From a virus (lineage: Duplodnaviria; Caudoviricetes): 64,000 nt of DNA. Position 1 is the first letter of the stretch. Every line of letters starts with the position of its first letter. Under the pieces are notes generated by a model, which saw nothing but the letters and a program-made list of their open reading frames with translations, did not search any database and was not told where the DNA came from. Made by a program: the position numbers and the translations under genes. The DNA lies in IMG/VR virus record IMGVR_UViG_3300033075_001000, positions 2,948-66,947 of that record, one strand, 5' to 3'. This document shows positions 1,112-52,379 of this stretch, piece after piece.

Positions 1112-1127
1112 GTCTCTTCTCCTCTTC

Positions 1128-27802: not shown

Positions 27803-29446
27803 TCAGACCCTTCCGCAAGCGAAATCTGCGATGAGCCGCGGGGCGACCGTGTCGAACCCGACGACGTCGAGGCAGCCCGGATCCCTGGCGTCCGCGATAG
27901 TGAAACCTGTGGAGGTCATCCCGATGACGACGAGCTTCGCGTCGGTCCCAGTCTGTTTCCGGTACTGCCGGAGAGCCTCCATGGGGTGGACGGACCCGCT
28001 GTGGGTCTCGTTGTCGGTGATGACGATGAAGCAGTCGACCTGGAGTCCCTCCTCCATGGCGTTCAGCATCGGGCGGGCGCAGTCGGTCCCGCCCCAGGGC
28101 CGGTTCTGGGTCGCCTGGAAGGCCTGGGAGAACTGGCACCCGTCGTTGATGCCGAGCGGGATCATCATAGAGTCGCTGGCGGGCCAGCCGTACCGGTTCA
28201 CCACACGGGAGGACGAGAACCCCCGGATGACGTAGTTCGGCTTCTCCGCCTTCGCGATCGCGAGGGCGAGGCACGCAGCCCCGGCCGCCGGGGTGAGTCC
28301 GGGGACGCCGGCGATGACGCCAGAGTACATCGAGGGCGAGACGTCGACGCCGATGTAGAACCGCTTCCCGGTGGGCTCGAGGAAGTCGAAGGACCGCAGG
28401 AACGCCCCGTCCAGGGCCGACACGATCGAGTCGACCTTGACCCAGGTGTTCTTCCCCCGGAAGCCGTGGCCCTGCCCGTACGTCAGGAGGGCCGCCAGGA
28501 GCTGGATCGGGTGGACGTGGGCCTTCCGGATCCACTCGTCGTTCCCGAGCCCCTGGACCACCTTGGCGGTCGCGGCAGACAGCGGCTTGAGGAGGCCGAC
28601 CTCGGTCATCTTCCCCAGGTTCCGGATCATGGCCGTCATGGGCATCCGCTCGAGGAGCGCCGCCCAGACCTCCGTGTCGTTCAGGAACTCGGTCTTGACG
28701 CACTCCCGGGGCAGGTCGTACTTCCGGATGAGCTCGACGGCCTCCTTCGGGTCCGTGGCGCGCTTCATCCGCTCGAAAGCCCAGACGCGGGCGAGGACCT
28801 CGTCCGGGTGGACCTCCTCCCCGACGGAGGGCCAGCCCTTGACGACCCAGTTCAGGATGTCGTTCCGGCGGCCGGCGACCTTCGGGTGGGCCAGACGCAG
28901 GACGTCCCGGTGGGACCATCCGTCCCGGGACTGGTACTTCATGACGTCGTAGACGAGGTCCTTGTCGGAGTGGGCCTCGTACCAGCGGGCGATCGCCTTC
29001 CGCAGACCGGTGCCCATGCCCCGCTCCGACTTCAGCATCGCCATGAGGTGGAAGAGGTGGGTGCCGATCTTGGCGACGCCGGGGAAGGCCTTGTAGGCCG
29101 CGCGCCGGCCCGCCTCCGTGCCCTTCACGGCCACCCGGGCGAGGGCGTAGAGGAGCGGGTCCTGCTTCGGGGCCCGGCGATCCTTGACGTTCTCGAGGAT
29201 CGTCTCGACGACGCGGTCAGGGTCCTCGGCGATGCACCGGTCGAGATTGGCGGTGTTCGCCTTGACCTGGGTCTCCTGGGAACAATAGTAAGTCGAGCCC
29301 TCCGCACCCAGAATGAGGAAGCGCTGGAGGGCCTTCCAGGGGTCGAGTGCGTAGACGAAGCCTCCGGCCTGGTTCTGCACCTGGCTGGAGTCGAGCGGCT
29401 CCCTCTGAGGGATGGTGGACTTCCTCTTGGGAACAAGGTAGGCCAT
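27803..29446 (-). CDS. rsr: Ro60/Rsr TROVE-domain RNA-binding protein
   Basis: QVQNQAGGFV...LQRFLILG...YY; YQSRDGWSHRDVLRLAHP; MPMTAMIRNLGKMT; vWA MIDAS VDVSPSM...TDC...ITDNET; LDVVGFD. Confidence 0.97.
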   Translation of the reverse strand: MAYLVPKRKSTIPQREPLDSSQVQNQAGGFVYALDPWKALQRFLILGAEGSTYYCSQETQVKANTANLDRCIAEDPDRVVETILENVKDRRAPKQDPLLYALARVAVKGTEAGRRAAYKAFPGVAKIGTHLFHLMAMLKSERGMGTGLRKAIARWYEAHSDKDLVYDVMKYQSRDGWSHRDVLRLAHPKVAGRRNDILNWVVKGWPSVGEEVHPDEVLARVWAFERMKRATDPKEAVELIRKYDLPRECVKTEFLNDTEVWAALLERMPMTAMIRNLGKMTEVGLLKPLSAATAKVVQGLGNDEWIRKAHVHPIQLLAALLTYGQGHGFRGKNTWVKVDSIVSALDGAFLRSFDFLEPTGKRFYIGVDVSPSMYSGVIAGVPGLTPAAGAACLALAIAKAEKPNYVIRGFSSSRVVNRYGWPASDSMMIPLGINDGCQFSQAFQATQNRPWGGTDCARPMLNAMEEGLQVDCFIVITDNETHSGSVHPMEALRQYRKQTGTDAKLVVIGMTSTGFTIADARDPGCLDVVGFDTVAPRLIADFACGRV

Positions 29447-29515: not shown

Positions 29516-29676
29516 TCCTTCTGTTTGAACCAGCGGCGCCACTTCCCCCGCTTCTTGTCCTCGGCGTGGAAGTCCTTGCCGACCTCCTGGTCGACGCCGA
29601 CCTTCTTCGCGAACTCCGGGGAGTGCGCGATCGCGTTAAAAAATCTTGCCTGGCGTTTACTGGACGATGGAGCCAT
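29512..29676 (-). CDS. Conserved small phage protein
   Basis: PSSSKRQARFFNAIAHSPEFAKKVGVDQEVGKDF. Confidence 0.7.
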   Translation of the reverse strand: MAPSSSKRQARFFNAIAHSPEFAKKVGVDQEVGKDFHAEDKKRGKWRRWFKQKD

Positions 29677-30361
29677 CGGACTCCCCCTTCTTCTTGCCCT
29701 CCCAGCGAGCGAGAGCTGCATCTCTGGCCCCTGCCGCCAAGTGCGAGCATTGAGACTTGCCCCTACAGGCCCTGGAACAAAACCGCCGTTTCGTAGCGGT
29801 AGCTGGGGTAACCCGGATAGCGGCCCCGCATCGTTCGCACGGCTTCATGGACTCGGTCCGTTTGTAGGCCCCCGCACACGTCGTGCTACAGAACTTCGCA
29901 CCCCTCCGAACAAACACCGGGTTGCGGTAGAACGTAGCGCCGCAATGGAGACACACTATGTCTTCCGCGGACCTGCGTGGCGTCGGTACAACGGGAGCTT
30001 CCGTAAAATTTACCTCCGCGACCGCGCGCCGCCTGTTGAATTCCTTGCGATAGTTACAATTGTGGCAGAGTAGCTGGTACTTGCCGGCGGGCCAGCCCTG
30101 CCGTTTGAGGCGAGAATAGAGCTGGACACCGCCCGCGCCGGCGGGGCGTTTCCGCTCTGTGTACCCAGTATCGTCGATGTGGTCCAATACCAGTATCACT
30201 GGATCGCCCTCGCCACAAAGCCGACATTTGCCGCCGTACGCGGCTACCATTTCACGTCGGATGCGATCCCTGCGCTCGGCTCCGTAATGCCTCAGATACC
30301 CCTTGTTACATTCGAGCCAACGGGCAAGGTTCTTTTTGGCTTCTTCAGACTTTATCGGCAT
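29657..30361 (-). CDS. HNH endonuclease with C-terminal Zn-finger repeats
   Basis: YGGKCRLCGE...LDHID...YQLLCHNCN; CLHCG...FCSTTC; CERCG...FCSRAC. Confidence 0.85.
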   Translation of the reverse strand: MPIKSEEAKKNLARWLECNKGYLRHYGAERRDRIRREMVAAYGGKCRLCGEGDPVILVLDHIDDTGYTERKRPAGAGGVQLYSRLKRQGWPAGKYQLLCHNCNYRKEFNRRRAVAEVNFTEAPVVPTPRRSAEDIVCLHCGATFYRNPVFVRRGAKFCSTTCAGAYKRTESMKPCERCGAAIRVTPATATKRRFCSRACRGKSQCSHLAAGARDAALARWEGKKKGESDGSIVQ

Positions 30362-30453
30362 GGTGTGCCTTCTGCCTCCACGCCTCAAGTATACCACCGT
30401 CTACGCGAAGAACTTCGCCTGTTTCTTCGACGTGCTGGGCATCGCGCCTCCCC

Positions 30454-33400
30454 TCACTCGTTCCCGAAGATCGCCTTCAGCCGGGCCTCGATCTTCTCGA
30501 CGTCCTTCCCTGACCGGGTCTTCCGCCAGAGCGCCGGCCGGGAGCTGCCGTCAGAGGCCCGTTTCCCGTAGGCCTTCTCGTGGAGGATGGGCTTGATCTC
30601 TTCCCGCTCGCTTCTCGAGGCGAGGTCCCAGAAGTCCAGGGCGATCTCGATCGGCATCGACCTCGAGTAGGCGGCCTGGAGCGAAGTCATCCCGCCGGCC
30701 TTCTCGACCTTCTTCGTGTCCTTCGGGTGGAGCTCGCCTTCGTCTTCCTTCTGCCGGACCTCAGAGAGGATTGCCTCTCGTTCAGCCGGAGTCTTCGCCC
30801 CGCGGAGCCGATCGTCGGCCTGGGCCAGGAACTTCGAGCGGTCACCCTGTTCGCGGGTCTTCGCTCCCTGTGGCATGTGCTCCGCGGAGTACTTCTTCAT
30901 CGCTTCTGTCAGGGGCGTACCCGTGACGTAGCTCGGGGCCCGGGTAACGCCGATCATTGGGGCCCACGCCGGGAGCTTCGTGTTCGGATTCGGGGCGCCC
31001 TCGATCATCTGCCGCACCGAGAACGGCAGGAACTCACGCATCAGGAATTTGGCGTCGTCGAGACGCTGCTGGAAGAACGGGTCTTTCGGGTCGTGGATCT
31101 GGATGTTCCAGAAGTCAGCGTTCCGGCCAATGTAGTAGATGTCACCGAGGACCGGATGCAGCTTGTGGGTGATCGTGGTGAGCGGGTGCGTCGACCAGGC
31201 GAGGACGTCCTTGACGTAGGTGGCATACATGAACCGCTCGTCCGTGCCGTCGGTGTTCTTGGCCCCAGTGGGGACCGCGTAGAGGTCATTGAGCTCCTTC
31301 GGCGCCTTCTTGTGGAGCATGTAGTAGGTCATCGCCCCGATGACGCCCATCCCCCACGCCAGATAGAGGCCGTACGCCATCCTGTGTGTCATGACCGGGT
31401 CCCGGAGGTCGTAGCGAGGCGCCGGCGGCTCTTCCGGCCCGCCTTCGCCGCCCTTCCCGCCCCGCGGCGGCCCTCCCGCCGGCGGTTTGCCGACGCGCCG
31501 GCCGACGGTGAACAGGTCGGTGACGGCCCCTCCGAGGTGCCGGATGTCTCCGGTGTTCCAGCCGAGGCTTCGAACAGCGAGCATCGCGACGTCCTTCGCC
31601 GTGCGGTTCCAGAAGAGGTTGTCGTAGACCATCTGCCCCATCCGGTCGTCGACAGCGTCCCATGCCCGCGCGAGGGCGTGACGCAGGACGTAGGGGTCGA
31701 CGTCGGGGCCGAGGCGCTCGACTTCGTATCGGGCCAGCATGGCGAAGACACCGAGCTTCATCCTCGGCACCCACCACTCCATCAGCCATGCGCCCGTCTT
31801 CTCGAAGAAGGCCGGGAGCAGGTTGCCGAACACTCCCAGGACGCTCTTTTGCCGGAGGGCCCTGCCGAGGGCCTCCCCGGCCTTCGTCATGTAGAGCGAC
31901 TCCTGCTTGAAGCGCCCGCCGGCCGTGATGACCCACTCCACTTCCGGGATGCTGGCGGATCCCGCGAGAGCCTCCTGCATGATCTGGTGACCGCGGTAGA
32001 CGTTCTGGATGGGCGTGTGCGGGGAGAGCCCGAAAGCCATGTTCTTGAGGCCCTGGCGTACGTCGCCCTGGGCAAGCTGGTAGATGCCTACCGCGCCTCG
32101 AGAGGTGAGGGAGTCGAGAACCGTGAACATCCAGTGGAAACCGGAGAGCCCAAGCTGGGCCTGGTTGAGGAGGTTGAAGACCCATCGGACGCCGCGGTAG
32201 GACTTCTTGTGCCCCAGGCCCGGCGAGAGGGCCCGGTTGACGATCCTGGCGACCGGCTTCGGCGCCGCCCAGTAGCCCTTGACGAGCAGGCCGTGCAGGT
32301 CCTGCTTCGTCGTGATGGTCTTACGGGTGATCGTCGGCTTCAGGTCGAGGATCGGGGCGGTCTCGTCGTTCTTCTTGAGGAAGGCCTCGAGCCGCTCGAA
32401 GGCCTTGGGGGCGATCTTCCGGTAGTGCTCCTTGTTCGTGACATACCCGTCGAGGAGGTTCGCGACGAGCTCCGGCCGGCTCATGACGTACTTCTTCCGG
32501 CTCTTCGAGATCTTGTCTTCGGTCTTGATCCGGTCCTCGGCCATCCTCTTGAGCTCGTCCTCGATGCCGGGGGCCCCCTTCATGAGCTCGTCCCAGAGGT
32601 CGTACTTCTGGTCGAGAAGGTGCCCGATCTCGTGCCAGAGGAGGCCCAGGGGGGATGCGAAGCGCGTGAGGATGATGCCCCGCGTCGGGTAAGCCACGCC
32701 GTGGGTTCTACCGGTCCCCGGGAGACGGTAGTGCTTGGCGCCCAGGTCCGCGAGGATCTTCGTAGCACCGTCCCAGAGCTTCTGGTCCACGACCTCGTCG
32801 AGCTTGATGTTGCCGGGGCCGTAGATCGTCCCGACCCGTGGGTCCAGCCTTTCCCAGCCCGGAGGGGGGCTCGGCATCGTCTCGACCGAGAAAGCCTTGA
32901 CATAGCCATGCCGGCGGCCTTCGGCGAGCCACTGGTGGCAGGCGACGTACTTGTAGACGTTGTGGAGGTGATCCAGGACCGCGTCGATCGGGTTCGGGTG
33001 CTTGAGCTTGAGCCCGGGGCCGCCCTCGCTCTCCGGCTTTAGCCCGTCGACGATGAACTCGATGTGCCGCTTCTTCAGGAAGGTCTTTGACCCCTCCCAG
33101 TTCCGCTGCTTCGTGAAAGTGGCCGACCAGTCCTCCGCCTTCTTCGTGTCCGCCCAGAGGTGCGGGAAGTAGTCCTCGAAGAAATGCTTCAGGCGCCCGG
33201 TGCCGAGGTTCCGGATGGCGTCCCGTGCCTCGTCGAGGATTTCCCTGACAAGCTCTGCGGCCTCGTTCAGGACGGGCGTCTCTTGTGGATCCCCGCGCTC
33301 GATCTTGTCGAGGAAGGTGACGACCTCGGACTCGCTCTTGCGGTCGAGCTCGATCTTGGCCGCCTTCAGCATCGTGTGGGCCTGGAGCAGACGGTGCTCC

Positions 33401-36400
33401 CGCCGGGCCGTCGTCTCGCGCATAGAGTCGCCCGCGAGGGTCGCCTCGAGCGTTGCCGTCTGCGGCGCGAAGGCGTTCCGCATGTCGGAGAAGAGCTCGG
33501 AGAACGTCTCCCGGATCGGGTGCTCCTTGACCTTCGGCAGCGGATCCGGCCGCTCCTTCTTCGGCTTGGGCCCCTTTTCGATGAGCCGACGCCCGGCCGC
33601 GAAATCTCCAGCGTCCCGGGTGCTCCCACCGCGAGACGCGAGCCCTGCCTTGCCGGCGGGGGGCACGAGGGAGACGACCGGGTAGGTCGACATGAACCGC
33701 GCCAGTACGGGCTCCAGCGCCTCGTCGGCCGGGAAGAGGTACCGCGACGTATAGCTGTGCCGCTCGACGAGGACGCCCATCTTTTCGACCTGGAGTCTGG
33801 CGTCCCAGAGCTTCTGGGCAGCCTTCTGGTCGTTGTCGTCGATCTCGATCCGCTCGACGCCCGTGATGAGCGACCGCCGGAGCCACCATCCGTTCGCGAG
33901 CTTCGCCCGCCACTTCCCGTTGAGGACCTTCTCGATGACTTCGGTCGGAGTGATCTCGCGCGAGCTCTGCCCGACGCCAAGGTTCGTGAGGACTTCGTCG
34001 AGCTCCGCCGCGTCGATCAGCCTCCCGAGGATGCGCCCGCCGTCCGTGATCTTCACACGGCGGATGCGAGGCGTGCCCGCACCGAGCCGGTTCCAGACCG
34101 GCAGGAGCGCCCCGCTGACGATGTGGAGGGGAGACTCGTGGAACTTCGGGACCAACTTCGACTGCTCGTCCCAGAGCGCCATGGCCTTCTCGAGATCGAC
34201 CTCGTCGAACCGCTTGCCGTCGATCTGGCCGCCCCAGGAGTAGAAGTCCTCCACGGGCTCCCACGCCTGCCCGAATGGGGTCTGGGCGAGGAGCTTCATG
34301 TGGACCGTGCCCTGCTTGTCCGTGGTAGTGGTCCGGTTGTCGTAGAGCGCGTGGATGCGCCCGCTCGCCTTGTTCTTGACGTAACGCTCGATCCCGCGAG
34401 CCCCCGGGAACCGGAGCGGCTCCCGCTTCTTCTTCGAGATGAGCTCGTAGTAGACGGTCTCTGCGTGCGACCGCTTGTCGATGTTGACGACGCTGCGGCG
34501 GACCTCCTTGACCTCGTCAGCCCGGATGTCCTCGACGCCGAGCTCAAGAGTCCCGGCCTGCCGCGCGACGTCGATGAGGTGGCCGAGGAGGCTGCTCAGC
34601 TTGTCGAAAACGATCTTCTGCCCTTCGAGCGGCATCGAGAGCACCCGGTTCAGGAACTGCGTCATCTCCGGCATATCGAGCGTGCTGGTGATGTCGAGCC
34701 CCGTCGCCTCCTGGAAGTCCTCCCTCGACATGCCCTCGAGCTCACCTCCGCGGACCAGCCCGAAGAGTGCCGATAGCGCCTGGGCGGCGAGCGGCGACTC
34801 GAGGTTGTCGGACTCGGTGAACATGCCCTGCCCGGCTGCGGAGCGCTGGCCCTTCGTCAGCGCGCCTGACTGCGCCATGCGGCGAGCGATCGTCGAGACA
34901 AACCGCTTGTGGCCCGGGACCTCTGTAGAGACCAGGATGTCTACCGGCGCGTTCTCCTGGTTCGACCGATGCGTACGGCCGAGGCCCTGGATCGCCTTGT
35001 CGGCACGCCATCCCGGCTGGAGCAGGTAGTGGTAACGGCGCCGCTGGTTCTTCGCGTTCCGCGATGAGTGGTAAGACGCGCCTGTGCCGCCCGCCTCGGA
35101 GAACACGAGGATCTTCTTGCGGTCCGCCATGAAGTCGGCGGCCTCGGAGGCGTTCGCCGTGCTGCCCCTCTTCTCCTCACGGAGCTTCCCGTCCGGCCCG
35201 CGCACGAGTCGAGCATTCCGCCCGGTAACCTCGGCGACCTTGTCGGGCCCGAAGTGGTTGATGAGCTGGTCGAGCGCACCGTCCGGGACCGGGAGCTGCC
35301 CGAGCTCCGTCAGCAGGGCCTCCCGCATCGCGACGGCATCGGGGTTCTCGATGTAGTCCCCCTTCGAGTCCGTCGCGTAGACCATCTTGACGTTGCCGTC
35401 TTCGTCGGTCTTCTCGACCATCTGATGGACGGGGAAGCTCTTCTCGACGTACTCCATCAGGCTGCGCCGCGGCGTGAGGTCGAGGCTCTCGAGATCGTCC
35501 TCTTCCTCCATCTCCTTCTTGGCACGGTCGAGCTGTGCCTTGCCGGTCAGCGTGAGCTGGACGACGACGGCGTGTCCTTCCTTGAGCTGCCTCTCCATGT
35601 CGACCAGGACCGTCGGCATCTGGATCGAGGTCAGGACCATGTTCCAGAACCGCTGGTTCGTGGACCAGAACTGGTTATAGGCGTTCAGCTTCGCCCACTT
35701 GCTGATCCGGTTGGCGTGGTCCTTCGCGGTCAGGCCAAGAGCATCGTCGATCTTGCTCGAGACGAGGCGCCACGCAGACGCGAGCTTGTCCCACATCTCC
35801 TTCTGGCTGTCGGTCAGATCGTGCTGAAGCCGCTGCACCTCGACGCCTTCGAACGAAAGCGTCCGAGCGCAGTAGACGCCCGCGGCCTTCATGCCCTGGG
35901 CCACGAGCTCCATCGCTGCGATACCGCCGCTGGCGACGCTGGTGACGAACTTGCCCTTGTCGGGGAACGCCGTCTCCTCGCCCCAGAGACCGAGCCGGTC
36001 AGCGTAGGCGAGGTTCGAGACTTCCGTAGCCGCCGTCGCAGAGGCGTAGACAACGCGGGACTTCGGGAGCGATCGCGCCAGACCGATGCCGGCAAGGGCC
36101 CTCTTCGAGGGCTCCTTCTTCCGTCCCCCCTTGGACGTCGCGATCGCGTTCGCCATGTTGTGGCTCTCGTCGTAGGCAATGACGCCTTCGAAGTCCGCCC
36201 CGAGCCACTCCTTGATCTGGTCGATACGGGCGACCTTCTTCACCTGGGAGGCGGCCTCCGTCTCGGCCGGCTGGTCTCCCTTCTTCTTCTTCTTCTTGCC
36301 GGAGGACTCCGCTGCAAGCGTCGTGTAGGTGACGACGAGGATGCCGTCCTTCTTCGGGACCGACCCGTCGGACGCGACCTTGTCGAGCCGCATGACGTTG

Positions 36401-39400
36401 TCGGGGTTCATCCCGATTGCCGCGAGCTCCTTCTTGATGTCCTCGACGAGACGCCAGTTCTCCGTCACCCAGACGGCTCGCTTCCGCCCCTGGCGCCAGT
36501 TGTCGGCGATGACTCCGGCGATGATGCGTGCCTTGCCGACGCCGGTGCCGTCTCCGACGAGGAACCCACGGCGCTCCCCGCTGGGAAGGATCTGTTGGTG
36601 GGCGTTCCCGGAGAGGGCGATCGCTTCGAACTGCGCGTCCGAGATGTCGCCGCGCTCCATGGCCCCCTCGGAGATCCACGGTGAGTAATCGACTGGAGGG
36701 TACTTGACGGCCGACATGGCGGCCGACTCGACGAGCTTGGCCGGATGGGGCTTCAGCCCCTTGATCTTGATGCTGGGGGTGTACCGTTCGAAGACCGCCG
36801 TAGAGAGCTCTTCGCTCTCACCCGTACCGGCGGTCTGTTCGACCTTCAGGTCTCGGGCGTCTGGTCCAGCCCCTGGCTCAACGTCGAGGACAGGCGGTCG
36901 TAGTACACCTCCAGCAGGTTTGCCGCGACTTCCGCCGGGCTCTGGCTGTGCAGCCACTCCGGGTCGAGCTTCGGGTGCTCCAGCTCGAGGTCCGGTTCGT
37001 CGTCCGGGTGCACCAGCCACTTCCACGCCCGGCCGTGCTTCGCTCCCAGGAGCGTGTTCAGGAACTGCCCCGCCTCTTCCCGTACTTCCCTGTTCCCCGG
37101 GGGCGTTACCTCGCCCTGTCTCCGGGCCCACTGCATCAGTTGGAGTGCGTACAGGAACTCCGGGTCGGGCTGCGCTACCTGGCCGAGCTTCTCTTTCGCT
37201 AGCTGGTTGAGGGGCGTTTCGTTCTCCGGAACGATCTCTTTCGCCACCGGGCACCTCCGTCTCTATTTTCACTCGTTCCGGGAGTGTCGGCGCGAAATCT
37301 TCGAGCTGCTTCAGTGTCTGGCACTTCCGCTCCCGGATCCCGCCGACGTCCTGGGGCTTCTTCACCTTGTCCCAGATCAGGACCCGGGTCGGGAACGACG
37401 TCCCGTACTTGGCGTAGATCTTCTGGGCCCCCGTCATGTCGAAGTTGGCGACGAGGACTCCCCCGATCGCCTTCATCTCGTCGAAGACGGCCCGGTACTT
37501 CGGGGCAAGCGGGCTCATCCCTGCTCCGACGATCGCCACGAGTCGGCCGCCGTCGCGCAGGGTCCGGAACGCTGCGGTGATGTGCTTGCCGGCCGTCAGG
37601 ATCGCCTTCTTGTCGAGCCCCGCCGATGCCGAGAAGGGGGGGTTCATCAGTACGACGGTCGGCTGGCGATCGCCGCTCAGTTCCTTGGCGAGTGCGGAGT
37701 TGATGATGCCGGCGTCGACCGAGAAGGTCTCGCTCAGGCCGACGCCCATGTGCTGGATCAGCTCGGCCCGGTTCTCCTCGAGCTCGTTACCGAAGAGCTC
37801 CCGCGGCTCGTAGACGTGTGCCGCTGCGGACAGAGAGCCGAGGCCTACCGACGGCTCGAGGACGACGTCGTCCTTCGTGATACCGGCGAGCTTGGCTACC
37901 ACGGCCGCGTAGTCCGCAGGCGTCGAGAACTGCTGGAACTTGTCTGTGGCGACGTCCCGGACGGTCTTCGTCGGGAGGTCATGGATCAGTTCGCGCAGAC
38001 TCTCCCGATTACCCATGAAACGCTTGTCGGTCGCCGCGAGATAGTTGATCGCCAGCTCGATCGCGTCGTAGAGGCGGCTGATCGAGTAGTCCTTCGTGAC
38101 CTCTAGGCCCGTCTTCGCCTTCAGGACGTCGGCGAGGTCCTTCGCCGTCGACCACATCGCCGCCGCCTTGCGGATCCTCTCTCCCGGCGCCATCGGACCG
38201 GTGTGGTAGGTCCCCGGTGGGGCCTGGAGCTCGACGATGGCGTCCCGAAGGGTGCGAAGCATCACCGCCCCGGGGGGCAGATCTGCCTCTACGTCTCGTT
38301 CGGGTCCAGGTCCTGGTTCACCTTCTGGCTCGAGCCCGAGGCCGGGCTGTCGCTGGTCGCCCGGTGCCGTTTCGGCTTCAGGCTCTTCATCGCCGCCGCC
38401 CACTCCTTCGGGTGGAACACCGGGGACAGTATCCTCGCCCTCACCTTGCGCCCGAACCACTTCGGTCCATGGCTGCTGGGATGAGCGGCCCGCGGTCTTG
38501 AGTTTGGAGAGGACGGTGGTCGCATCGTTTCCCTCGAATATCTTAATCGGAATGCCCTGGAACGTGTGGATCTTCCCGTCTTCTGTCTGGATCTCCAGGA
38601 AGGCGTCCTCGAAGGCCTCGTTCACGAGGCCCTTGGCCTCTTCGAGCTCCATGAGCGCCAGTTGGCCTGGCCGCTTGAAGGCGATAACGAACTCGTCTCC
38701 GCCGATATTGAAACCGCTACCCCCGACCGTGATGGCGCACTTTTTCACGATGTCGGCGGCGGCCTGGATCGCCGCATCGCCCGCATCCATGCCGTAGGTG
38801 TCGTTGAACCACTTGAACGCCTTCAGGTCGAGCGCGACGAAGCGCTCGTAAGTCTTCTCCCGGCGGACCTTCTCGAAGGAGTCCTTGTTCCAGAGCCCGG
38901 TGAAGTGCGTATCTGCCCGGCGAGTCTCGGCCTCGGCCCTCTCGCCGAGGAGGTCGACGAGCTCCTCGAGCTCTTCTTTCGAGGCCCGCTTGTCCTTCTT
39001 CTTCTGGAGGAGCTTCTCGATCCGGGCCGTCGTGTCCGGATGCTCCCGGCGCTCCCGCGGGCCTTCCGTGGGCTCCGCCCGGCGCTCGGGGCCGGCGTAC
39101 CGCTCTCCGTCCTCCTCGGTTTCGGTGTCTGCGCCCAGCTCGAGCTGGCCCTCGTCCGACTTGGGACGAGCTCGGTACTGCCCTCGCTCCCGCTTCCCCA
39201 CGATCTCGTCAAGGTCCGCCAGCTCCTCGTCGGTGGCCGTACCCTCTCTCTCTTTCTCGAGTAGACCGTTGACGTGAGCGGTTGTGCTGTCGTCCCACCT
39301 ACGCTCCTCGCCCTCGTAGGCGGGGGCGGAGACCTCGGGAGCCTCGACTGGCGGCCCGAACTCGTGCTCCTTCGGGGGCATGTGTGTGTTCTGAGTCTCC

Positions 39401-42075
39401 GGGGCGACCGAGATCTTGGTCTTGTGGACGTTGCGCTCGACGCCGTTCGGGAGCTTCACCCTGAACTTGCCCTCGGAGTCCCCGTGAGACTGGACCTCGA
39501 CGGGCTGATCGCCGACGAAGGCCGGGAACGGTACGGTCAGGTAGCGGTTCTCGCTGGCCTTCTCGAGCGGGATCCTCTGCGCGGGCGTGGCGGCAGGGGC
39601 TTTGCCCTTCTTCTCGACCGTGATCGTCCCGGGGTCCTCGTCGAGGCTCAGCGCGGCATCCGGGTAGGAGTCCCACCGAACGGCTTCACCGTCCTCGGTG
39701 ACTTCCCCTCCAACCTTCTTCAGGTGGCTGTAGACCCTCGTCCCCGGGGGGACGCTGGCCTTGCCGTCACGCACCGTAATGATCTGCTGCCCGGATGCCT
39801 TTGCGACGCTTCGCGCCGCAGCCACGTCTTCAGCGATACGCCTATCGTCCGCTTCCCTCTCAGCCTGCCACTTCTTCTCTTCTCGCGCCTTCCTCTGCCT
39901 GTCGAGGATCGCCTTGTCCGTGTTGTCACCGACAACCGTCCACCGCTGATCGAGCGGGAAAGTCTTCCCGGTGAGTGTCGTGACCCCACCGGAAGCTCCC
40001 GTGACGCGGACGCGGAATCCTCCCTTCGATCCGACAACCTCGCCGGTGAGCTGAGAATCTCCGAGCGGGCCTCCCTGGGGGAGATAGACCTTATCCCCGG
40101 CCCTCGGTTTGACGCGCCCGTCCGGATGAAACGCCCGGTCCGTGCCGAATGTCGCCTTGCGGTGAGCACGGAGCCCCGCTGGGGTAACGTCCGTTGGGTC
40201 AGCGGGAGGTGGTTCCTCCGGCTGGACCGGCTCCTCGTCCTCCCGCGGCTCCGGGCCCACGTCCTCCGGCGGCCGGATGGTCTCTCCCTCGGGCTGCTCC
40301 GGCTCGGGCGGCTCCTGCTGCTCGGGGGCGGCCTCGTCCTCGCCCTCGATGAAGTCCGGCTCCTGGACCTCCGCCTCCGCCACTTCCTGGACGGGCTCGG
40401 GCTCGGGTGGCTTCGGACGAGACGTGACGATGACGTCGGCTACCGGCAACGTCCCGGTGATGCCGCTCGGGAACTTGATGGGCACACGGTGCTCGTCCGG
40501 GTCGTCCGGGTCCCCGATCGGCGGGCCGGTCACGATGAAAGGCTTCCCGAACTTGCTCGTGGCCTCGATCGGGTAGACCGTCTTCCCCTTGCCCTGGGCG
40601 AGGATCTTGTCGAGCGGCGTCCGGATCGCCTCCTGCGCGAGGACTGCCTCGCCCGGGGGGACCTCGGGGGGAGGTGTCGTCCCGGGAGGTTCGATCTCGA
40701 GGACCTGGGTCGGCTTGCCCACGAGCTCTGGGGCCGTCGCGACCGGTGCGGGGGCCGGTTCAGGGGCCCCGACGGGGCCTGGAGTCGTCCGTGGCTCGAC
40801 CGGAGGCATGGCAGGGGGGGGCGCCGCCTGGGGCGGCATGGCTGGGCCTGGGCCAGCCACAGGGCCTCCTGGCGGCGCCGGCGGAGCTCCACCGGGCCCA
40901 ACGGGAGACCCGGCCGGAGCAACCGGCGGCTCTTGAACGGGAGGCGCTCCAGCCCCAGCCCTGGCTTCGTTCTGGGCGAGAAGCTCTGCCACAACCGGCT
41001 GCGTGGCCGCCCTGTTCGCCCGATCCGCTATCCCGGCCTTGATGTCGCCGATGGCTTTCGTTCCGGCTACCTTGGTGCCTGCGACCGCACCGACCAAGCC
41101 GAGGAGTGCTGCCGTGGCCTCTGGCCCAGACTGCTTCTTCGCCCTCTCGAAATCTCCCTCGAGAAGGTCGGCTACCGCCTCTGGTCCGGCCTTGCTCGCG
41201 AAGTCCCAGAGCATCTTCAGGCCGAACCCGGTACCGACGATTGCGGCTCCGATCGGACCCGTAGCCGCAACAGCGGCGGCGCCCAGACCGGCCGGGGACG
41301 TTGCACCCTCCACGAGGTTGGCCCCAGTCCTCGCCACGAACCCGCCGACATCGGCCGCCGCTGGCCCTCCGGGGATGTTCTTCATCAGCGGTTCGGCAAC
41401 ACCGAGCGCCGCTTCGACCGGCTTCCGGATGGGGAGCGCCGATTCCCCGCGGGCGAGCCGGTTGTAGAAGCTCTGCTCCTCCTGCTGCGCCGCATACGCT
41501 GCGGGGCGTCCGGCTACGAGAGCATCGAGCGCGGTCTCGTACCGCGGTTCTGCTGCCTTGTCTGCCGCGGACGATGCGAGGAACTTCGAACCGGCCTGGG
41601 GCGTAGGAGAAACGGGGCCCTGCGGGGGGGGAGTCGGCTTCGCAGCGCTCTTGTCGAGCGTATCTGCGGGCTGTCCGAGCGCCGAGCTGACCTGCCGAAG
41701 GGCGATCGCCTTGCTGGCGGCCTTCCGCCCCGGCATGTCCTCTCTGCCGACGTCTACCGATTCGGGTGCGGCCCCGGCTGGCATGGCCGGCGGGACTGGC
41801 GCTGCACCGAGCATCGACTGTGTGAAGTCGCTCGCCACGTCGCCCTGCATGACGTCGGATTCGTACCCGACAGGCTTGCCCTCGTATCCGGACTTCTTTC
41901 CGGGGGCCGGGCTGAAGCCTTTCCGCTCTCGCTCCCCTACGACGATCTGGCCCTTGGTCTTGTTCTCGTACCGGGCCTTGATGTCCTTGACCTTGGCGTC
42001 GAGGTCATCCCAGTTGTCCGCGTCGACGTTGAAGACGACCTTCGTTCCGGGGACCTGATACTTGAGATTCGGCAT
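30454..42075 (-). CDS. 3873-aa polyvalent (DarB-like, probably virion-injected) protein: GGDEF + adenine MTase + Strawberry-notch SF2 helicase + HExxH
   Basis: GGDEF at 38689-38703; FSTP...LEPSVGLG...NPPF; GDGTGVGK...DESH...QGLGRTHRSNQ; HEIGH at 32620-32634; last large gene of the virion module. Confidence 0.9.
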   Translation of the reverse strand: MPNLKYQVPGTKVVFNVDADNWDDLDAKVKDIKARYENKTKGQIVVGERERKGFSPAPGKKSGYEGKPVGYESDVMQGDVASDFTQSMLGAAPVPPAMPAGAAPESVDVGREDMPGRKAASKAIALRQVSSALGQPADTLDKSAAKPTPPPQGPVSPTPQAGSKFLASSAADKAAEPRYETALDALVAGRPAAYAAQQEEQSFYNRLARGESALPIRKPVEAALGVAEPLMKNIPGGPAAADVGGFVARTGANLVEGATSPAGLGAAAVAATGPIGAAIVGTGFGLKMLWDFASKAGPEAVADLLEGDFERAKKQSGPEATAALLGLVGAVAGTKVAGTKAIGDIKAGIADRANRAATQPVVAELLAQNEARAGAGAPPVQEPPVAPAGSPVGPGGAPPAPPGGPVAGPGPAMPPQAAPPPAMPPVEPRTTPGPVGAPEPAPAPVATAPELVGKPTQVLEIEPPGTTPPPEVPPGEAVLAQEAIRTPLDKILAQGKGKTVYPIEATSKFGKPFIVTGPPIGDPDDPDEHRVPIKFPSGITGTLPVADVIVTSRPKPPEPEPVQEVAEAEVQEPDFIEGEDEAAPEQQEPPEPEQPEGETIRPPEDVGPEPREDEEPVQPEEPPPADPTDVTPAGLRAHRKATFGTDRAFHPDGRVKPRAGDKVYLPQGGPLGDSQLTGEVVGSKGGFRVRVTGASGGVTTLTGKTFPLDQRWTVVGDNTDKAILDRQRKAREEKKWQAEREADDRRIAEDVAAARSVAKASGQQIITVRDGKASVPPGTRVYSHLKKVGGEVTEDGEAVRWDSYPDAALSLDEDPGTITVEKKGKAPAATPAQRIPLEKASENRYLTVPFPAFVGDQPVEVQSHGDSEGKFRVKLPNGVERNVHKTKISVAPETQNTHMPPKEHEFGPPVEAPEVSAPAYEGEERRWDDSTTAHVNGLLEKEREGTATDEELADLDEIVGKRERGQYRARPKSDEGQLELGADTETEEDGERYAGPERRAEPTEGPRERREHPDTTARIEKLLQKKKDKRASKEELEELVDLLGERAEAETRRADTHFTGLWNKDSFEKVRREKTYERFVALDLKAFKWFNDTYGMDAGDAAIQAAADIVKKCAITVGGSGFNIGGDEFVIAFKRPGQLALMELEEAKGLVNEAFEDAFLEIQTEDGKIHTFQGIPIKIFEGNDATTVLSKLKTAGRSSQQPWTEVVRAQGEGEDTVPGVPPEGVGGGDEEPEAETAPGDQRQPGLGLEPEGEPGPGPERDVEADLPPGAVMLRTLRDAIVELQAPPGTYHTGPMAPGERIRKAAAMWSTAKDLADVLKAKTGLEVTKDYSISRLYDAIELAINYLAATDKRFMGNRESLRELIHDLPTKTVRDVATDKFQQFSTPADYAAVVAKLAGITKDDVVLEPSVGLGSLSAAAHVYEPRELFGNELEENRAELIQHMGVGLSETFSVDAGIINSALAKELSGDRQPTVVLMNPPFSASAGLDKKAILTAGKHITAAFRTLRDGGRLVAIVGAGMSPLAPKYRAVFDEMKAIGGVLVANFDMTGAQKIYAKYGTSFPTRVLIWDKVKKPQDVGGIRERKCQTLKQLEDFAPTLPERVKIETEVPGGERDRSGERNAPQPASEREARPGSAARPGVPVRTPTDAVGPETGRGNAPGEQGSTGRGGAVPEHAPGSEARPGVEVAGAPGRRTGPRAGAPEARPGVAAQPEPGGSRGKPAGGVLRPPVLDVEPGAGPDARDLKVEQTAGTGESEELSTAVFERYTPSIKIKGLKPHPAKLVESAAMSAVKYPPVDYSPWISEGAMERGDISDAQFEAIALSGNAHQQILPSGERRGFLVGDGTGVGKARIIAGVIADNWRQGRKRAVWVTENWRLVEDIKKELAAIGMNPDNVMRLDKVASDGSVPKKDGILVVTYTTLAAESSGKKKKKKGDQPAETEAASQVKKVARIDQIKEWLGADFEGVIAYDESHNMANAIATSKGGRKKEPSKRALAGIGLARSLPKSRVVYASATAATEVSNLAYADRLGLWGEETAFPDKGKFVTSVASGGIAAMELVAQGMKAAGVYCARTLSFEGVEVQRLQHDLTDSQKEMWDKLASAWRLVSSKIDDALGLTAKDHANRISKWAKLNAYNQFWSTNQRFWNMVLTSIQMPTVLVDMERQLKEGHAVVVQLTLTGKAQLDRAKKEMEEEDDLESLDLTPRRSLMEYVEKSFPVHQMVEKTDEDGNVKMVYATDSKGDYIENPDAVAMREALLTELGQLPVPDGALDQLINHFGPDKVAEVTGRNARLVRGPDGKLREEKRGSTANASEAADFMADRKKILVFSEAGGTGASYHSSRNAKNQRRRYHYLLQPGWRADKAIQGLGRTHRSNQENAPVDILVSTEVPGHKRFVSTIARRMAQSGALTKGQRSAAGQGMFTESDNLESPLAAQALSALFGLVRGGELEGMSREDFQEATGLDITSTLDMPEMTQFLNRVLSMPLEGQKIVFDKLSSLLGHLIDVARQAGTLELGVEDIRADEVKEVRRSVVNIDKRSHAETVYYELISKKKREPLRFPGARGIERYVKNKASGRIHALYDNRTTTTDKQGTVHMKLLAQTPFGQAWEPVEDFYSWGGQIDGKRFDEVDLEKAMALWDEQSKLVPKFHESPLHIVSGALLPVWNRLGAGTPRIRRVKITDGGRILGRLIDAAELDEVLTNLGVGQSSREITPTEVIEKVLNGKWRAKLANGWWLRRSLITGVERIEIDDNDQKAAQKLWDARLQVEKMGVLVERHSYTSRYLFPADEALEPVLARFMSTYPVVSLVPPAGKAGLASRGGSTRDAGDFAAGRRLIEKGPKPKKERPDPLPKVKEHPIRETFSELFSDMRNAFAPQTATLEATLAGDSMRETTARREHRLLQAHTMLKAAKIELDRKSESEVVTFLDKIERGDPQETPVLNEAAELVREILDEARDAIRNLGTGRLKHFFEDYFPHLWADTKKAEDWSATFTKQRNWEGSKTFLKKRHIEFIVDGLKPESEGGPGLKLKHPNPIDAVLDHLHNVYKYVACHQWLAEGRRHGYVKAFSVETMPSPPPGWERLDPRVGTIYGPGNIKLDEVVDQKLWDGATKILADLGAKHYRLPGTGRTHGVAYPTRGIILTRFASPLGLLWHEIGHLLDQKYDLWDELMKGAPGIEDELKRMAEDRIKTEDKISKSRKKYVMSRPELVANLLDGYVTNKEHYRKIAPKAFERLEAFLKKNDETAPILDLKPTITRKTITTKQDLHGLLVKGYWAAPKPVARIVNRALSPGLGHKKSYRGVRWVFNLLNQAQLGLSGFHWMFTVLDSLTSRGAVGIYQLAQGDVRQGLKNMAFGLSPHTPIQNVYRGHQIMQEALAGSASIPEVEWVITAGGRFKQESLYMTKAGEALGRALRQKSVLGVFGNLLPAFFEKTGAWLMEWWVPRMKLGVFAMLARYEVERLGPDVDPYVLRHALARAWDAVDDRMGQMVYDNLFWNRTAKDVAMLAVRSLGWNTGDIRHLGGAVTDLFTVGRRVGKPPAGGPPRGGKGGEGGPEEPPAPRYDLRDPVMTHRMAYGLYLAWGMGVIGAMTYYMLHKKAPKELNDLYAVPTGAKNTDGTDERFMYATYVKDVLAWSTHPLTTITHKLHPVLGDIYYIGRNADFWNIQIHDPKDPFFQQRLDDAKFLMREFLPFSVRQMIEGAPNPNTKLPAWAPMIGVTRAPSYVTGTPLTEAMKKYSAEHMPQGAKTREQGDRSKFLAQADDRLRGAKTPAEREAILSEVRQKEDEGELHPKDTKKVEKAGGMTSLQAAYSRSMPIEIALDFWDLASRSEREEIKPILHEKAYGKRASDGSSRPALWRKTRSGKDVEKIEARLKAIFGNE

Positions 42076-48999: not shown

Positions 49000-49944
49000 C
49001 TACTCGTTCCACTCAACCAAGAGGTATCCGCTTCTGCCGGCGCGCATCCCTGACGCCGCACCGTGGTAACCACCCGTGCCCCACCCCCCGGGGAAGCTCA
49101 CGCCAGGAGCCCCGTTCACCGCGGTCGTTCCAGAGGCCCCCGTGATCGGAGGGAAGCCGTTGGCCCCTGACGTGCCGCCAGGCCCACCGGCAGCGGCCCC
49201 AATCCCCGTGGTTGTCCCCGTGACGCCCCCTGACCCGAGCCCCCCCGCGAGTGTGAGGAGCCCCCCGAAGGACGTCGCGCCTCCCGCACTCCCCGCCGTG
49301 ACGCTCCCGGCGGTTGAGGAGCTCGCCCCCGCGGTGCCGCCGGTCCCGATGGTGACGGTGTAGCCAGTCGATGCGGTGACGGTGAGCTTCTTGCGGAAGA
49401 CCGACTCGCCGCCGCCTCCGCCGCCGACCCCGCCGTGAGCCGTGTCGGTCTCTTCCCCGCCGCACCCGCCGCCAGCTCCGCAGCCGGTGACCCAGACCTC
49501 CGTGACTCCGGCCGCCGTGGTGAACACCGTCGCCCCGCTCGTGAATTCCTGCGCCCTCATGATCTTGCCTCCCGTGAACGTCAGGGTTCCTCCCGAGACC
49601 GAGAAGCCGGTGCCGAGGGAGATTTCCTCGACGTCGCCCGCGCCGGCCGTCGAGCGGCCCAGCAGGCGGTCGGTGGCAGAGACGTTCTGGATCTTGGCGT
49701 AAGTGACGGCGTCGTTGTCGATGGTCCACGTCGCGAAGTCGTTCGTGACCGTGATGTCGCCCTTGTCGCCGTCGGTCAGCTTGGCCTCGATGGCAGCGAT
49801 GGACGCGGCGCTCGACGCCGCGAGCGTGTCGTGGGCCCCGGCGAGCTCGTTGCCGGTCAGACCGATGTCGCGCAGCATCTCGTAGAGAAGAGGGTCCTTC
49901 TGGGCGCGCTGCGCGAACTTCGTGGTCTTGAAGTTGATGGGCAT
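49000..49944 (-). CDS. Tail fibre/spike-like protein with a Gly-rich domain
   Basis: DGDKGDITV...AVTYAKIQNV...LLGRSTAGAGDVEEI; QEFTSG...VWVTGCGAGGG Gly-rich module. Confidence 0.7.
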   Translation of the reverse strand: MPINFKTTKFAQRAQKDPLLYEMLRDIGLTGNELAGAHDTLAASSAASIAAIEAKLTDGDKGDITVTNDFATWTIDNDAVTYAKIQNVSATDRLLGRSTAGAGDVEEISLGTGFSVSGGTLTFTGGKIMRAQEFTSGATVFTTAAGVTEVWVTGCGAGGGCGGEETDTAHGGVGGGGGGESVFRKKLTVTASTGYTVTIGTGGTAGASSSTAGSVTAGSAGGATSFGGLLTLAGGLGSGGVTGTTTGIGAAAGGPGGTSGANGFPPITGASGTTAVNGAPGVSFPGGWGTGGYHGAASGMRAGRSGYLLVEWNE

Positions 49945-52379
49945 CAGGTCTTCCGAAGGAACGAGTAGGGGGCCTGCTTGAGGAACGCCCCAAGCCGTCG
50001 CAGGCTCCAGTAGTCCGTCGCACCCGTCGTCCCGACCCGGAACCCGAGCTGCGTCTGGATGTTGTGGAACTTGATCTCGACGTCGTCGTCCGGGGCCGTC
50101 GAGAGCGTTTTGGCCGTGAGCGTCGTCAGCGTCCCGCCCGGCGTGCGCGACTGCGTGACGAGGCTGCCCGCCCCGCGGATGCGGAGGATGAGCCGGTCGA
50201 AGAGGGAGCGGCCGATCTCGGAGCCGACGGGGGCCGTCTCGTAGTACGACGGGAACGCGACGGTGAAGTCGGCGAGGGCCCCGGTGGTCTGCTGCCCCAG
50301 GTTCGTGCCGACCGATACCGTGAACGCATCGTCGCGAGTGTCCATCTCGACCATGTGACCGAAGGTCGCGGCCATGGGCCAGATGGTCCACTTGCGCCCC
50401 ACGCCTCCGCCGGCAATCGGGTCTCCGAAGCCCTCGACGTAATCGAGGACGAAGACCTGAGCGATGGCGCCGCTCGTGATGGTGGTCGAAACGCCGATGT
50501 AGACCCGCTGGGCGGACGTATCGACGACGCTCCAGAAGCCGGCCCCGTGCGTCCAGTCGAGCGCGTCCCAGGTGGGCTGGATCTCCTGGCTGATCTTCTC
50601 CGGCGTCCCGCCCGTGAAGTGGTAGACGCCGTTGCGCGACACGATGATGGCCCAGGAGTCACCGAGGGCGACGCCGTGCGGCGACGGGGTCCCGACGGTG
50701 TTGGAGACCTGGTCCACGGTCCAGGTGTACGGCTCGTCCCCGTTGTCGGTGACGACGTAGAGCGAGTGATCCTTGCAGACGTAGAGATTCCCGCGGAGCT
50801 GGAAGACGTCGGTGATGTACTGCCCGTCGTCCTTGGCGACCTGCACGAGACCGGTGGTGTCCATAACCGTCTCGGGGTCGTCGGGAGGAGAGACCCAGAG
50901 GACCGAGCCCATGTTCGCTTCGACGGCGTCGTAGAGTTCGATCCGGTCGATGAAGACGGTCTTGCCCAGCGGGATCGTGTTCTCGCCAGCGACCGTGATG
51001 TTGACGTACTGCCCGACGGGAGCCTCGCTGCCGAGGACGTTGCCCCAATCCCAATACGACCCGGAGTAGCCGGCGATCTCGGCGATGAGCGCCGACGCAA
51101 TCGTCGTCCCCGTCCCGGCGACATTCGAGGCGGAGACGCGCACCGTCACGCGGGCATTGGACGCGGCCATCCCGCTGTCCACCTTGGCTCTGACACGCAG
51201 CCCATACCGATGGCCGGGCAGGATGTAGTTCGTACCGCTCAGCCCGTAGTTGAGGGCGACCTGGTCGATCTGCCCTCGCGTGGCCGTAGCACCGTCCCCG
51301 GTGATGCGGTAGGCCTGGAGGGCGACGCCAGGGTCGGTGACGATGGCACCCCCCGCCCCGGTCGCCACCCACTCCGACGGCAGCGTGCCGTCGCGTTCGT
51401 CGAATGAGAGGGAGCGGAGGCCGACAGAGATAGGCGCGGAACTCGTCACGTCGGCGTCGGAGAAAGCCTGCGTGGACCCGTTGGCGCCCCAATAGCCGAG
51501 ACGGCTCCCGTACTTCTCGACGCCGACCATCGCCCGGACCGGGACGTTGTCGATGTAGTCCTCGAGCGACGTCCCGCTGATGAGCTCGGAGTCCGTAAAC
51601 GTGAGGCCGCTGAGCGTCGTCGTTGTGTTGTCCTGGATCGTGAAGCGCGGCAGGGTGAAGAACGAGGTGCTGTTCGCTGGCGTCGCGAAGACGGTCCGCT
51701 TGGTCACGTAGCCGGGACCGATGGGAATAACGGCGAAGTCGGCGCCCTGATTCAGGAGAAAGACGGCTCCGACGGGAGCAGAGGGGGGCGTGACGTACTC
51801 CGACTCCGTCTCGTAGACGACGACGAAGTCGTGACGGCCGGCGGACATCGTCCCCCCGGCACTCGGGGTGACGGTGAAGCACGCCGTCGGAGCGGCCTGA
51901 CCGACCGGCGTGATCCGCTGGCCGTCGTACTTGAAGACGCCGATAGATGCAGTCGGCGTGAACGGGATGGGATCGAGGATCGACGGGTTGTCCGGCGTGT
52001 CTTTCAGCTTGTAGACGGCGAAGTACGCCCGGCCGAAAAGCGTCGTCCCGCGTAGCCGGTGCTGCTCTCCCATCGCCGTAGTCGTCGCAGCAACGTCGCT
52101 GAACGGGATCGCCGCGCCGTCGTCAGTGATAGTCCCATTCGTCATGAGGATCAGGAGTCGCCTGGTATAGAGCGGGTCTACGTACGACAACATCCCCGTG
52201 GCGTTCGACGCCGTCGTCAGATACGTCGTGAACCCGACCCGGCTCCTGACTCCACCCGGGAAGAACTCCACATTCGAGCAGTCCGGCGACACTCCAACCG
52301 GCAGGTCGGATCGGTCGATCAGCGTCACCAGGCCGCCGTACTGATCTACCAGGACCGGCTGGAGGCCGTCGGTGCTCAT
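49944..52379 (-). CDS. Tail nozzle / DNA-stabilisation protein (P22 gp10- or T7 tubular B-like)
   Basis: 811 aa, beta-rich; GG...DRSDLP...NVEF..GGVRSRVG N-terminus; LWVSPPDDPE; position after the adaptor. Confidence 0.65.
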   Translation of the reverse strand: MSTDGLQPVLVDQYGGLVTLIDRSDLPVGVSPDCSNVEFFPGGVRSRVGFTTYLTTASNATGMLSYVDPLYTRRLLILMTNGTITDDGAAIPFSDVAATTTAMGEQHRLRGTTLFGRAYFAVYKLKDTPDNPSILDPIPFTPTASIGVFKYDGQRITPVGQAAPTACFTVTPSAGGTMSAGRHDFVVVYETESEYVTPPSAPVGAVFLLNQGADFAVIPIGPGYVTKRTVFATPANSTSFFTLPRFTIQDNTTTTLSGLTFTDSELISGTSLEDYIDNVPVRAMVGVEKYGSRLGYWGANGSTQAFSDADVTSSAPISVGLRSLSFDERDGTLPSEWVATGAGGAIVTDPGVALQAYRITGDGATATRGQIDQVALNYGLSGTNYILPGHRYGLRVRAKVDSGMAASNARVTVRVSASNVAGTGTTIASALIAEIAGYSGSYWDWGNVLGSEAPVGQYVNITVAGENTIPLGKTVFIDRIELYDAVEANMGSVLWVSPPDDPETVMDTTGLVQVAKDDGQYITDVFQLRGNLYVCKDHSLYVVTDNGDEPYTWTVDQVSNTVGTPSPHGVALGDSWAIIVSRNGVYHFTGGTPEKISQEIQPTWDALDWTHGAGFWSVVDTSAQRVYIGVSTTITSGAIAQVFVLDYVEGFGDPIAGGGVGRKWTIWPMAATFGHMVEMDTRDDAFTVSVGTNLGQQTTGALADFTVAFPSYYETAPVGSEIGRSLFDRLILRIRGAGSLVTQSRTPGGTLTTLTAKTLSTAPDDDVEIKFHNIQTQLGFRVGTTGATDYWSLRRLGAFLKQAPYSFLRKT

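Follow-up and report, generated by a model that had tools for sequence, protein, structure and literature searches.

We analysed a 64,000-nucleotide stretch of viral DNA (the window; positions 2,948 to 66,947 of IMG/VR record IMGVR_UViG_3300033075_001000) and focus here on a GGDEF domain inside P0001, a giant protein of 3,873 amino acids (aa) encoded by a single open reading frame (ORF). Residues 1055-1200 of P0001 are a genuine GGDEF domain. We lean towards the view that this domain is an active, feedback-insensitive diguanylate cyclase, carried as cargo by a polyvalent protein that resembles DarB of phage P1 in joining a methylase to a helicase, and probably delivered into the host with the phage DNA. 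The starting points are the identity, fold and residue conservation of the domain, its recurrence in phage polyvalent proteins and its synteny, from which we infer activity, dimerisation, delivery and a benefit to the phage. The source record (66,947 bases) is classed as linear, with a CheckV completeness estimate of 51%; the G+C content of the window is 65.8%. A plus-strand reading of the region gave stops and low-complexity sequence and was dropped, the feature being on the minus strand.

An earlier note on this DNA had recognised a GGDEF domain with its metal-binding Asp, ND motif and exact GGDEF signature, and had named a Pfam search and structure prediction as checks. Motif positions, profile match and alignment all bear the assignment out. 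As an isolated domain, the region matches Pfam GGDEF (PF00990) with 44.7 bits (E = 1.6e-11, profile positions 23-141 of 161). The cut-off of 23.8 bits is also exceeded within whole P0001 (38.3 bits) and in a repeat on the record (44.5 bits). A phmmer search against PDB sequences returned at least 20 solved diguanylate cyclases at E < 1e-3, the sole non-cyclase being one chance match near E = 1. The AlphaFold2 (AF2) model of the domain, a monomer predicted from an alignment of 34 sequences (A1), has a mean predicted local distance difference test score (pLDDT) of 87.9, and its best 50 Foldseek matches in the PDB are all GGDEF domains (probability 1.00, best E 1.2e-9). The top matches, SiaD, a coiled-coil plus GGDEF fragment of DgcB and a GCN4-WspR fusion, bear stalks, indicating that the long N-terminal helix of P0001 is aligned as well.

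The residues of P0001 were matched to those of PleD through alignment A1, with roles taken from the literature (PMC7288161). The Mg2+-binding D327 and E370 of PleD correspond to D1083 and D1127, the guanine-binding N335 and D344 to N1091 and D1100, and the phosphate-binding K442 and R446 to K1193 and R1197; the signature Glu (E371, E1128 in P0001) has a role outside those listed. All catalytic and substrate-binding positions listed in that review are kept. The Asp equivalent to D1083 is found in every aligned sequence (34 of 34 and 43 of 43), and D, K, N, D, G, G, D and E do not vary across the 43 phage sequences of alignment A4. K1193 and R1197 fall without gaps on the consensus L-Y-x-A-K-x-x-G-R in A1; a smaller alignment had shifted them by three residues. 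Judged from its sequence, the domain is probably a catalytically competent diguanylate cyclase.

The RxxD inhibitory site (I-site) is absent, as the earlier note had stated, with TVGG at positions -9 to -6 before the signature. No product feedback would then operate, and output would be limited only by GTP and by the lifetime of the enzyme. The note had also pointed to an Asn instead of Arg two residues before GGDEF. This substitution is present (N1123, with Arg in 27 of the 34 aligned sequences), but it does not amount to a catalytic defect. In PleD, a salt bridge links R366 (R249 of WspR) to D292, the Asp of the D.LTGL turn, and fixes the conformation of the linker (PMC3032553). Both partners are changed in P0001, to T1056 and N1123, and the equivalent pairs in 39 phage relatives include D/R (12), H/H (9) and D/H (7). 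Since the role of R366 is structural and both partners have changed, we rejected the catalytic-defect reading and set the Asn aside as a concern. Taken together with PleD, WspR, DgcB, SiaD and DgcR, P0001 shares their fold, their catalytic residues and an N-terminal helix running into the D.LTGL turn; it differs from them in the missing RxxD, in having no sensor domain and in the Thr/Asn pair at the D292-R366 salt bridge.

Close relatives of P0001 are rare. An HMMER search against 1.84 billion representatives returned 4,801 GGDEF proteins at E ≤ 1e-3, with P0002 as the single close relative. This protein of 3,748 aa has the same order of GGDEF domain, methylase and Strawberry-notch-type (Sbno) helicase, and its signature reads GGDEY. 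The two proteins are 40-43% identical in the GGDEF domain and 56% identical from the methylase to the C-terminus. A word-based search for relatives of the domain among proteins of 2,130-6,778 aa found only P0001 itself, a scan of viral contigs with the single GGDEF domain gave no match, and tblastn of the domain against cultured phages gave one weak match.

More distant relatives are found in a group of phage sequences, the KW clade. The patterns D..x.LKW.ND and [YF].[ITK][GS]GDE[FY] retrieved 48 IMG/VR loci, about 38 of them within ORFs of 1,400 to >4,400 aa. Across 18 aligned giant ORFs (A3), no block other than the GGDEF domain is conserved throughout; Pfam detects GGDEF in 17, InPase and RadC in 5 each, LPD38 in 4, and ART-PolyVal and LPD22 in 3 each. 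As judged from their domain content, giant ORFs with a GGDEF domain are polyvalent proteins of the kind described by Iyer et al. 2017 (PMC5512222). One of them, P0104 (4,373 aa), combines two tandem GGDEF domains with an Eco57I-type methylase, SNF2 and LPD39. Both of its GGDEF domains are intact, with the signature SGDEF (L003:9678-10880, plus strand), and the gene is found on 12 contigs and adjoins an integrase gene. P0128 (4,599 aa) is another giant polyvalent match. The InPase domain of the five ORFs (among loci L005-L052) is a polyvalent-type inorganic pyrophosphatase (PF18823); by its predicted function, such a pairing would remove the pyrophosphate that the cyclase releases.

The clade is marked by a Trp after the P-loop Lys, by mostly SGDEF signatures, by His or Asn at the position of R366, by a conserved leader and by a C-terminal RGE..PPG tail. 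P0001 has the KWFND motif, and its upstream PRERR stands at -75, compared with -50 in most of the clade. The tail, G.RA.RGE.PPG in alignments A2, A3 and A4, is absent from canonical cyclases; P0001 keeps part of it, RAQGEGEDTVPG. With a clade profile built without P0001 and P0002, P0001 scores 75 bits, within the range of cellular domains (70-93) and below that of clade members (120-217). In a maximum-likelihood tree, P0001 and P0002 sit on a long branch nested in the clade (Shimodaira-Hasegawa-like approximate likelihood ratio test, 82-88). Membership of P0001 in the clade is probable on these sequence comparisons and not secure.

The GGDEF domain also occurs in cultured phages. BFVD holds GGDEF proteins of Bacillus phages SP-15 and G and of Bordetella phage CN1. 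Among cultured phages, the clade domain was seen solely as a stand-alone form of 156 aa, present in 48 of the 55 matching records, all of them Pseudomonas Yuavirus-type or Bordetella Vojvodinavirus. The proteins of Yuavirus (YuA gp44, MP1412 gp43) and Vojvodinavirus (CN1, LK3) share KW.ND, [S/G]GDEF and the missing I-site with P0001, and a tie to anti-restriction is common to both: the stand-alone gene always lies directly upstream of the anti-restriction gene klcA (L053:5971-6932, L055:2495-3643, L056:2432-3428). Unlike P0001, which is a distant, long-branch relative, they are short, unfused, encoded among siphovirus non-structural genes and without the ERR leader. An apparent fusion of GGDEF and KlcA in phage BL8 was rejected, the two being separate ORFs; the annotated start of the 'anti-restriction protein' is placed too far upstream and overlaps the GGDEF ORF.

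In the proposed mechanism, two copies of P0001 would pair through their stalk helices, as in WspR, DgcB and SiaD. Each half-site would bind one GTP together with Mg2+, and the paired half-sites would condense two GTP to cyclic di-GMP (c-di-GMP), releasing pyrophosphate. The need for two half-sites fits the two intact tandem domains of P0104, which, from their sequence, could form an intramolecular cyclase dimer. Alternatively, the domain might make no signal at all; as a GTP-binding, GTP-sensing or structural module, it would regulate the neighbouring methylase and helicase or provide a scaffold for them. GGDEF domains can serve as GTP sensors or ATPases, as in YybT and PdeA. The long branch of P0001, its clade-profile score no better than that of cellular domains and the GGDEY signature of P0002 would agree with such a module. 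However, sensor-type GGDEF domains usually lose the signature or the metal ligands, whereas P0001 keeps every catalytic position. The metal and guanine ligands do not vary among sequences that are only 20-40% identical; this, together with the tandem form of P0104 and the co-occurrence with pyrophosphatase, argues for catalysis rather than mere binding, and we consider a non-signalling module very improbable.

The earlier note had further compared the ERR motifs upstream of the domain with c-di-GMP-binding linker motifs. The motifs themselves are real, conserved and above chance expectation. Three of the four ERR triplets of P0001 lie within residues 900-1060, and three or more were obtained in 42 of 10,000 shuffles of this region. 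Among phage-clade leaders, 24 of 39 contain [E/D]RR, mostly at offset -50, compared with 6.3% of background 80-aa windows from the same ORFs. Residues ~912-968 align to ~995-1052 with a score of 92, versus a shuffle mean of 35 (standard deviation 6.3), indicating that the leader-helix module is internally duplicated, with a GGDEF domain after the second copy only. The RRWD...HV part of the first copy matches the single leader of P0002 (DRRWD...HV...), in which the distance from DRR to the metal-binding Asp is 75 residues, as it is for PRERR in P0001. At -50, the RR of the clade opens a conserved stretch, [E/D]RR-x-D-x3-R-x-R-V-x2-M-[T/S]-P-[E/D]-E-M-R-x-A-L-L, that runs into LTG[L/I].NRRAY; it was derived from 16 sequences with RR, of which 15 are true leaders and one, a 452-aa ORF of L024, has KRR by coincidence.

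The comparison with binding motifs did not hold. By sequence, the ERR leader is a genuine conserved N-terminal extension that matches no established c-di-GMP-binding motif and bears only a loose resemblance to RxxD and RxxxR. In the AF2 model that includes the leader, residues 985-1012 are disordered (pLDDT ~50), and helices 1013-1027 and 1033-1054 run into the domain. Foldseek aligns the helix with the stalks of DgcB, SiaD and GCN4-WspR. Packing of the ERR motifs onto the GGDEF domain was rejected, since this model predicted them to be disordered. The region can be best described as a duplicated leader and stalk module. The Arg-rich leader might still be a functional part of a phage-specific class of cyclases, either as a relocated switch that binds product or nucleic acid in place of the I-site, or as an element that changes the product of the injected enzyme to a non-canonical nucleotide directed against host nucleotide-based immunity instead of common c-di-GMP signalling. 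We regard such a role as distinctly unlikely.

A related possibility is that the enzyme is active with a product other than c-di-GMP. This could be a dinucleotide, linear or mixed, or some other nucleotide serving to jam nucleotide-based immunity or to act as its decoy. The clade's own traits (Trp, SGDEF, replacement of R366 by His or Asn, leader and RGE..PPG tail) and the association of the domain with anti-restriction genes would suit a deviating product, and synthesis of cyclic GMP-AMP (cGAMP) or c-di-AMP is possible for GGDEF enzymes. However, the Asn and Asp that read the guanine show little or no variation. Hypr GGDEF enzymes, which synthesise cGAMP, carry Ser at the position of PleD D344 (PMC7288161); this substitution is absent from P0001, which retains D1100 in alignment A1, so that GTP is the expected substrate rather than those of Hypr-type cGAMP synthesis. 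PADLOC gave no meaningful match and no similarity to defence cyclases, leaving the link to nucleotide-signalling immunity drawn in the earlier note without support. A product other than c-di-GMP therefore appears improbable.

Regarding the protein that carries the domain, its placement inside a giant polyvalent protein, as the earlier note had it, is confirmed: unrelated enzymatic domains (GGDEF, methylase and Sbno-type helicase) are joined in one viral polypeptide. In the methylase region, the Pfam matches to MTS and N6_Mtase stay under their cut-offs, and a Pfam scan of the protein detected no ART, LPD or MPTase domain. This design is already published, and P0001 is one more instance of it: Iyer et al. 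2017 listed GGDEF among the nucleotide-generating domains of polyvalent proteins and proposed interference with host nucleotide signalling (PMC5512222). Like P0001, these proteins combine GGDEF with an adenine methylase, a superfamily 2 (SF2) helicase of the SNF2 or Sbno type and an HExxH motif, and they are predicted to deliver a nucleotide signal upon invasion (PMC5512222). An example is Acetonema longum WP_004096050.1, with GGDEF, SNF2, adenine methylase, zincin peptidase and ART domains (PMC5512222). Compared by architecture, P0001 differs from it in having no ART, LPD or MPTase match in Pfam, a Strawberry-notch helicase and a duplicated leader.

In a Clostridiales metagenome-assembled genome (MAG), the methylase-helicase core has a relative of 3,717 aa (L054:5882-17035, plus strand; 35% identity) that lacks a GGDEF domain, which indicates that the cyclase domain behaves as exchangeable cargo. 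DarB of phage P1 is an injected methylase-helicase anti-restriction protein. It resembles P0001 in architecture only: a single protein of the virion type in which a large SF2 helicase comes after a methylase (in part after Iyer 2017). DarB lacks a GGDEF domain, and a tblastn comparison of residues 1350-3873 of P0001 with phage P1 detected no similarity at E 1e-10.

The giant gene is the last of a tail block that opens with an adaptor-like gene (Table 1). In three other records (L002, L003, L004), the giant gene likewise ends a block opened by an SU10_adaptor gene, and a Pfam family search of five further records found such a gene above the cut-off in all five, 9-17 kb upstream and on the same strand. 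The adaptor-to-giant-gene layout was observed in nine of the nine records examined. In short-tailed phages, the last position of the tail block is that of internal or ejection protein genes. Because of this position and of the DarB-like class, and by analogy with known injected proteins, P0001 is probably a virion component that enters the cell together with the DNA.

P0001 might otherwise be made during infection. An active cyclase that is not virion-delivered could be produced in infection or lysogeny, like the Yuavirus and Vojvodinavirus proteins, and reprogramme host c-di-GMP from inside. The position of the stand-alone gene among non-structural genes by klcA, outside the structural block, and the hyperbiofilm of LK3 lysogens agree with such production, as does the single hydrophobic segment of P0001. 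Against it stand the location of the giant gene at the end of the adaptor and tail block in all nine records and the grouping of methylase-helicase polyvalent proteins in one class with the injected DarB (Iyer 2017). On balance, we consider it unlikely that the cyclase is undelivered.

Several points weigh against an active, injected diguanylate cyclase. Apart from the loss of the linker salt bridge, P0001 deviates from canonical cyclases at His340 of YGH, which is Met, and in the conserved AD..LY, which reads AT..LS. Towards its sole close relative, the GGDEF domain is less conserved than the helicase part (40-43% versus 56%). P0001 has only one strongly hydrophobic segment (residues 262-282), indicating that its character as a membrane-spanning ejection protein is weak. 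A genome-contig scan for the host gave only the Clostridiales MAG relative and identified no host; the proposed effect presupposes one that uses c-di-GMP. In the literature, we found no enzymatic, binding or virion-proteomic data for P0001 or its relatives, and no paper with activity measurements on a GGDEF domain from a phage. Among cultured phages, residues 1350-3873 had a single weak match, to a Bacteroides phage, so that no virion proteomics can be transferred from cultured relatives.

If active in the host, the cyclase would raise c-di-GMP and favour a sessile state of low motility. The phage might benefit in that pili or flagella would no longer serve as receptors, shutting out competing phages. 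Effects in this direction are known: Pseudomonas phage peptides raise c-di-GMP through YfiN (PMC8085984), c-di-GMP induces PlzR, an inhibitor of type IV pilus assembly (PMC11461919), and excess biofilm is formed by LK3 lysogens (PMC8471281). Injection of a ready-made, feedback-free cyclase could switch the lifestyle of the host within seconds, before phage gene expression, affecting motility, pili and biofilm. The host would then be taken over by a new route, which might also be one of superinfection exclusion. To the published design, the present analysis makes modest additions: a leader that is conserved and duplicated, an account of the Arg-to-Asn change in terms of salt-bridge covariation, the adaptor-to-giant-gene synteny and, as an experimental handle, the klcA-adjoining stand-alone genes. 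The cultured Pseudomonas and Bordetella phages that carry these clade members offer tractable material.

Table 1. Features of P0001 and of its neighbourhood (positions are those of the window)
Feature	Window position	Residues of P0001	Strand	Evidence
Giant polyvalent-protein gene (P0001)	30454-42075		-	single ORF; Pfam GGDEF, AAA_34, Helicase_C_4
Leader copy 1, contains YEGEERR, no GGDEF domain after it	39172-39342	~912-968	-	aligns to copy 2
YEGEERR	39298-39318	920-926	-	motif search
Leader copy 2 (YAGPERR, PRERR) and two stalk helices	38914-39099	993-1054	-	AF2, Foldseek, P0002 offset
YAGPERR	39079-39099	993-999	-	motif search
PRERR	39046-39060	1006-1010	-	motif search
GGDEF catalytic domain	38476-38913	1055-1200	-	Pfam PF00990, AF2 model, PDB fold matches, PleD-aligned residues
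DTHFTGL		1055-1061	-	motif search
KAFKWFND		1085-1092	-	motif search
GGDEF signature motif	38689-38703	G1125-F1129	-	motif search
Probable N6-adenine DNA methyltransferase domain (NPPF 1478-1481)	37366-37998	~1360-1570	-	phrog_6263 'DNA methyltransferase' E 3.5e-8, phrog_9133
Strawberry-notch-type (Sbno) SF2 helicase	34528-36750	1776-2516	-	Pfam AAA_34 E 4e-101, Helicase_C_4 E 3e-81
HEIGH motif, possible zincin-type processing peptidase	32620-32634		-	motif only
SU10-adaptor-like gene, opens the tail block ending with the giant gene	52734-53954		-	Pfam SU10_adaptor 25 bits, just below the 27-bit cut-off
Virion structural protein gene	49944-52379		-	upstream of giant gene
Tail-fibre-like protein gene	49000-50391		-	upstream of giant gene
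Gene for a 644-aa protein, block upstream of P0001	45745-47679		-	phrog_21390 E 1.4e-23, sub-threshold lipocalin-like match
246-aa ORF between the giant gene and the Ro60 gene	29657-30397			

The HEIGH motif of P0001 is not accompanied by a match in the Pfam scan around it. Upstream of the giant gene, three further proteins have no family match. On the downstream side, the second gene from the giant gene is a complete Ro60 gene (TROVE plus vWA; 27803-29446, minus strand), which matches Pfam vWA_Ro60 (E 2.8e-49) and TROVE (E 1.4e-30) as well as phrog_850, annotated as 'RNA-binding protein'.

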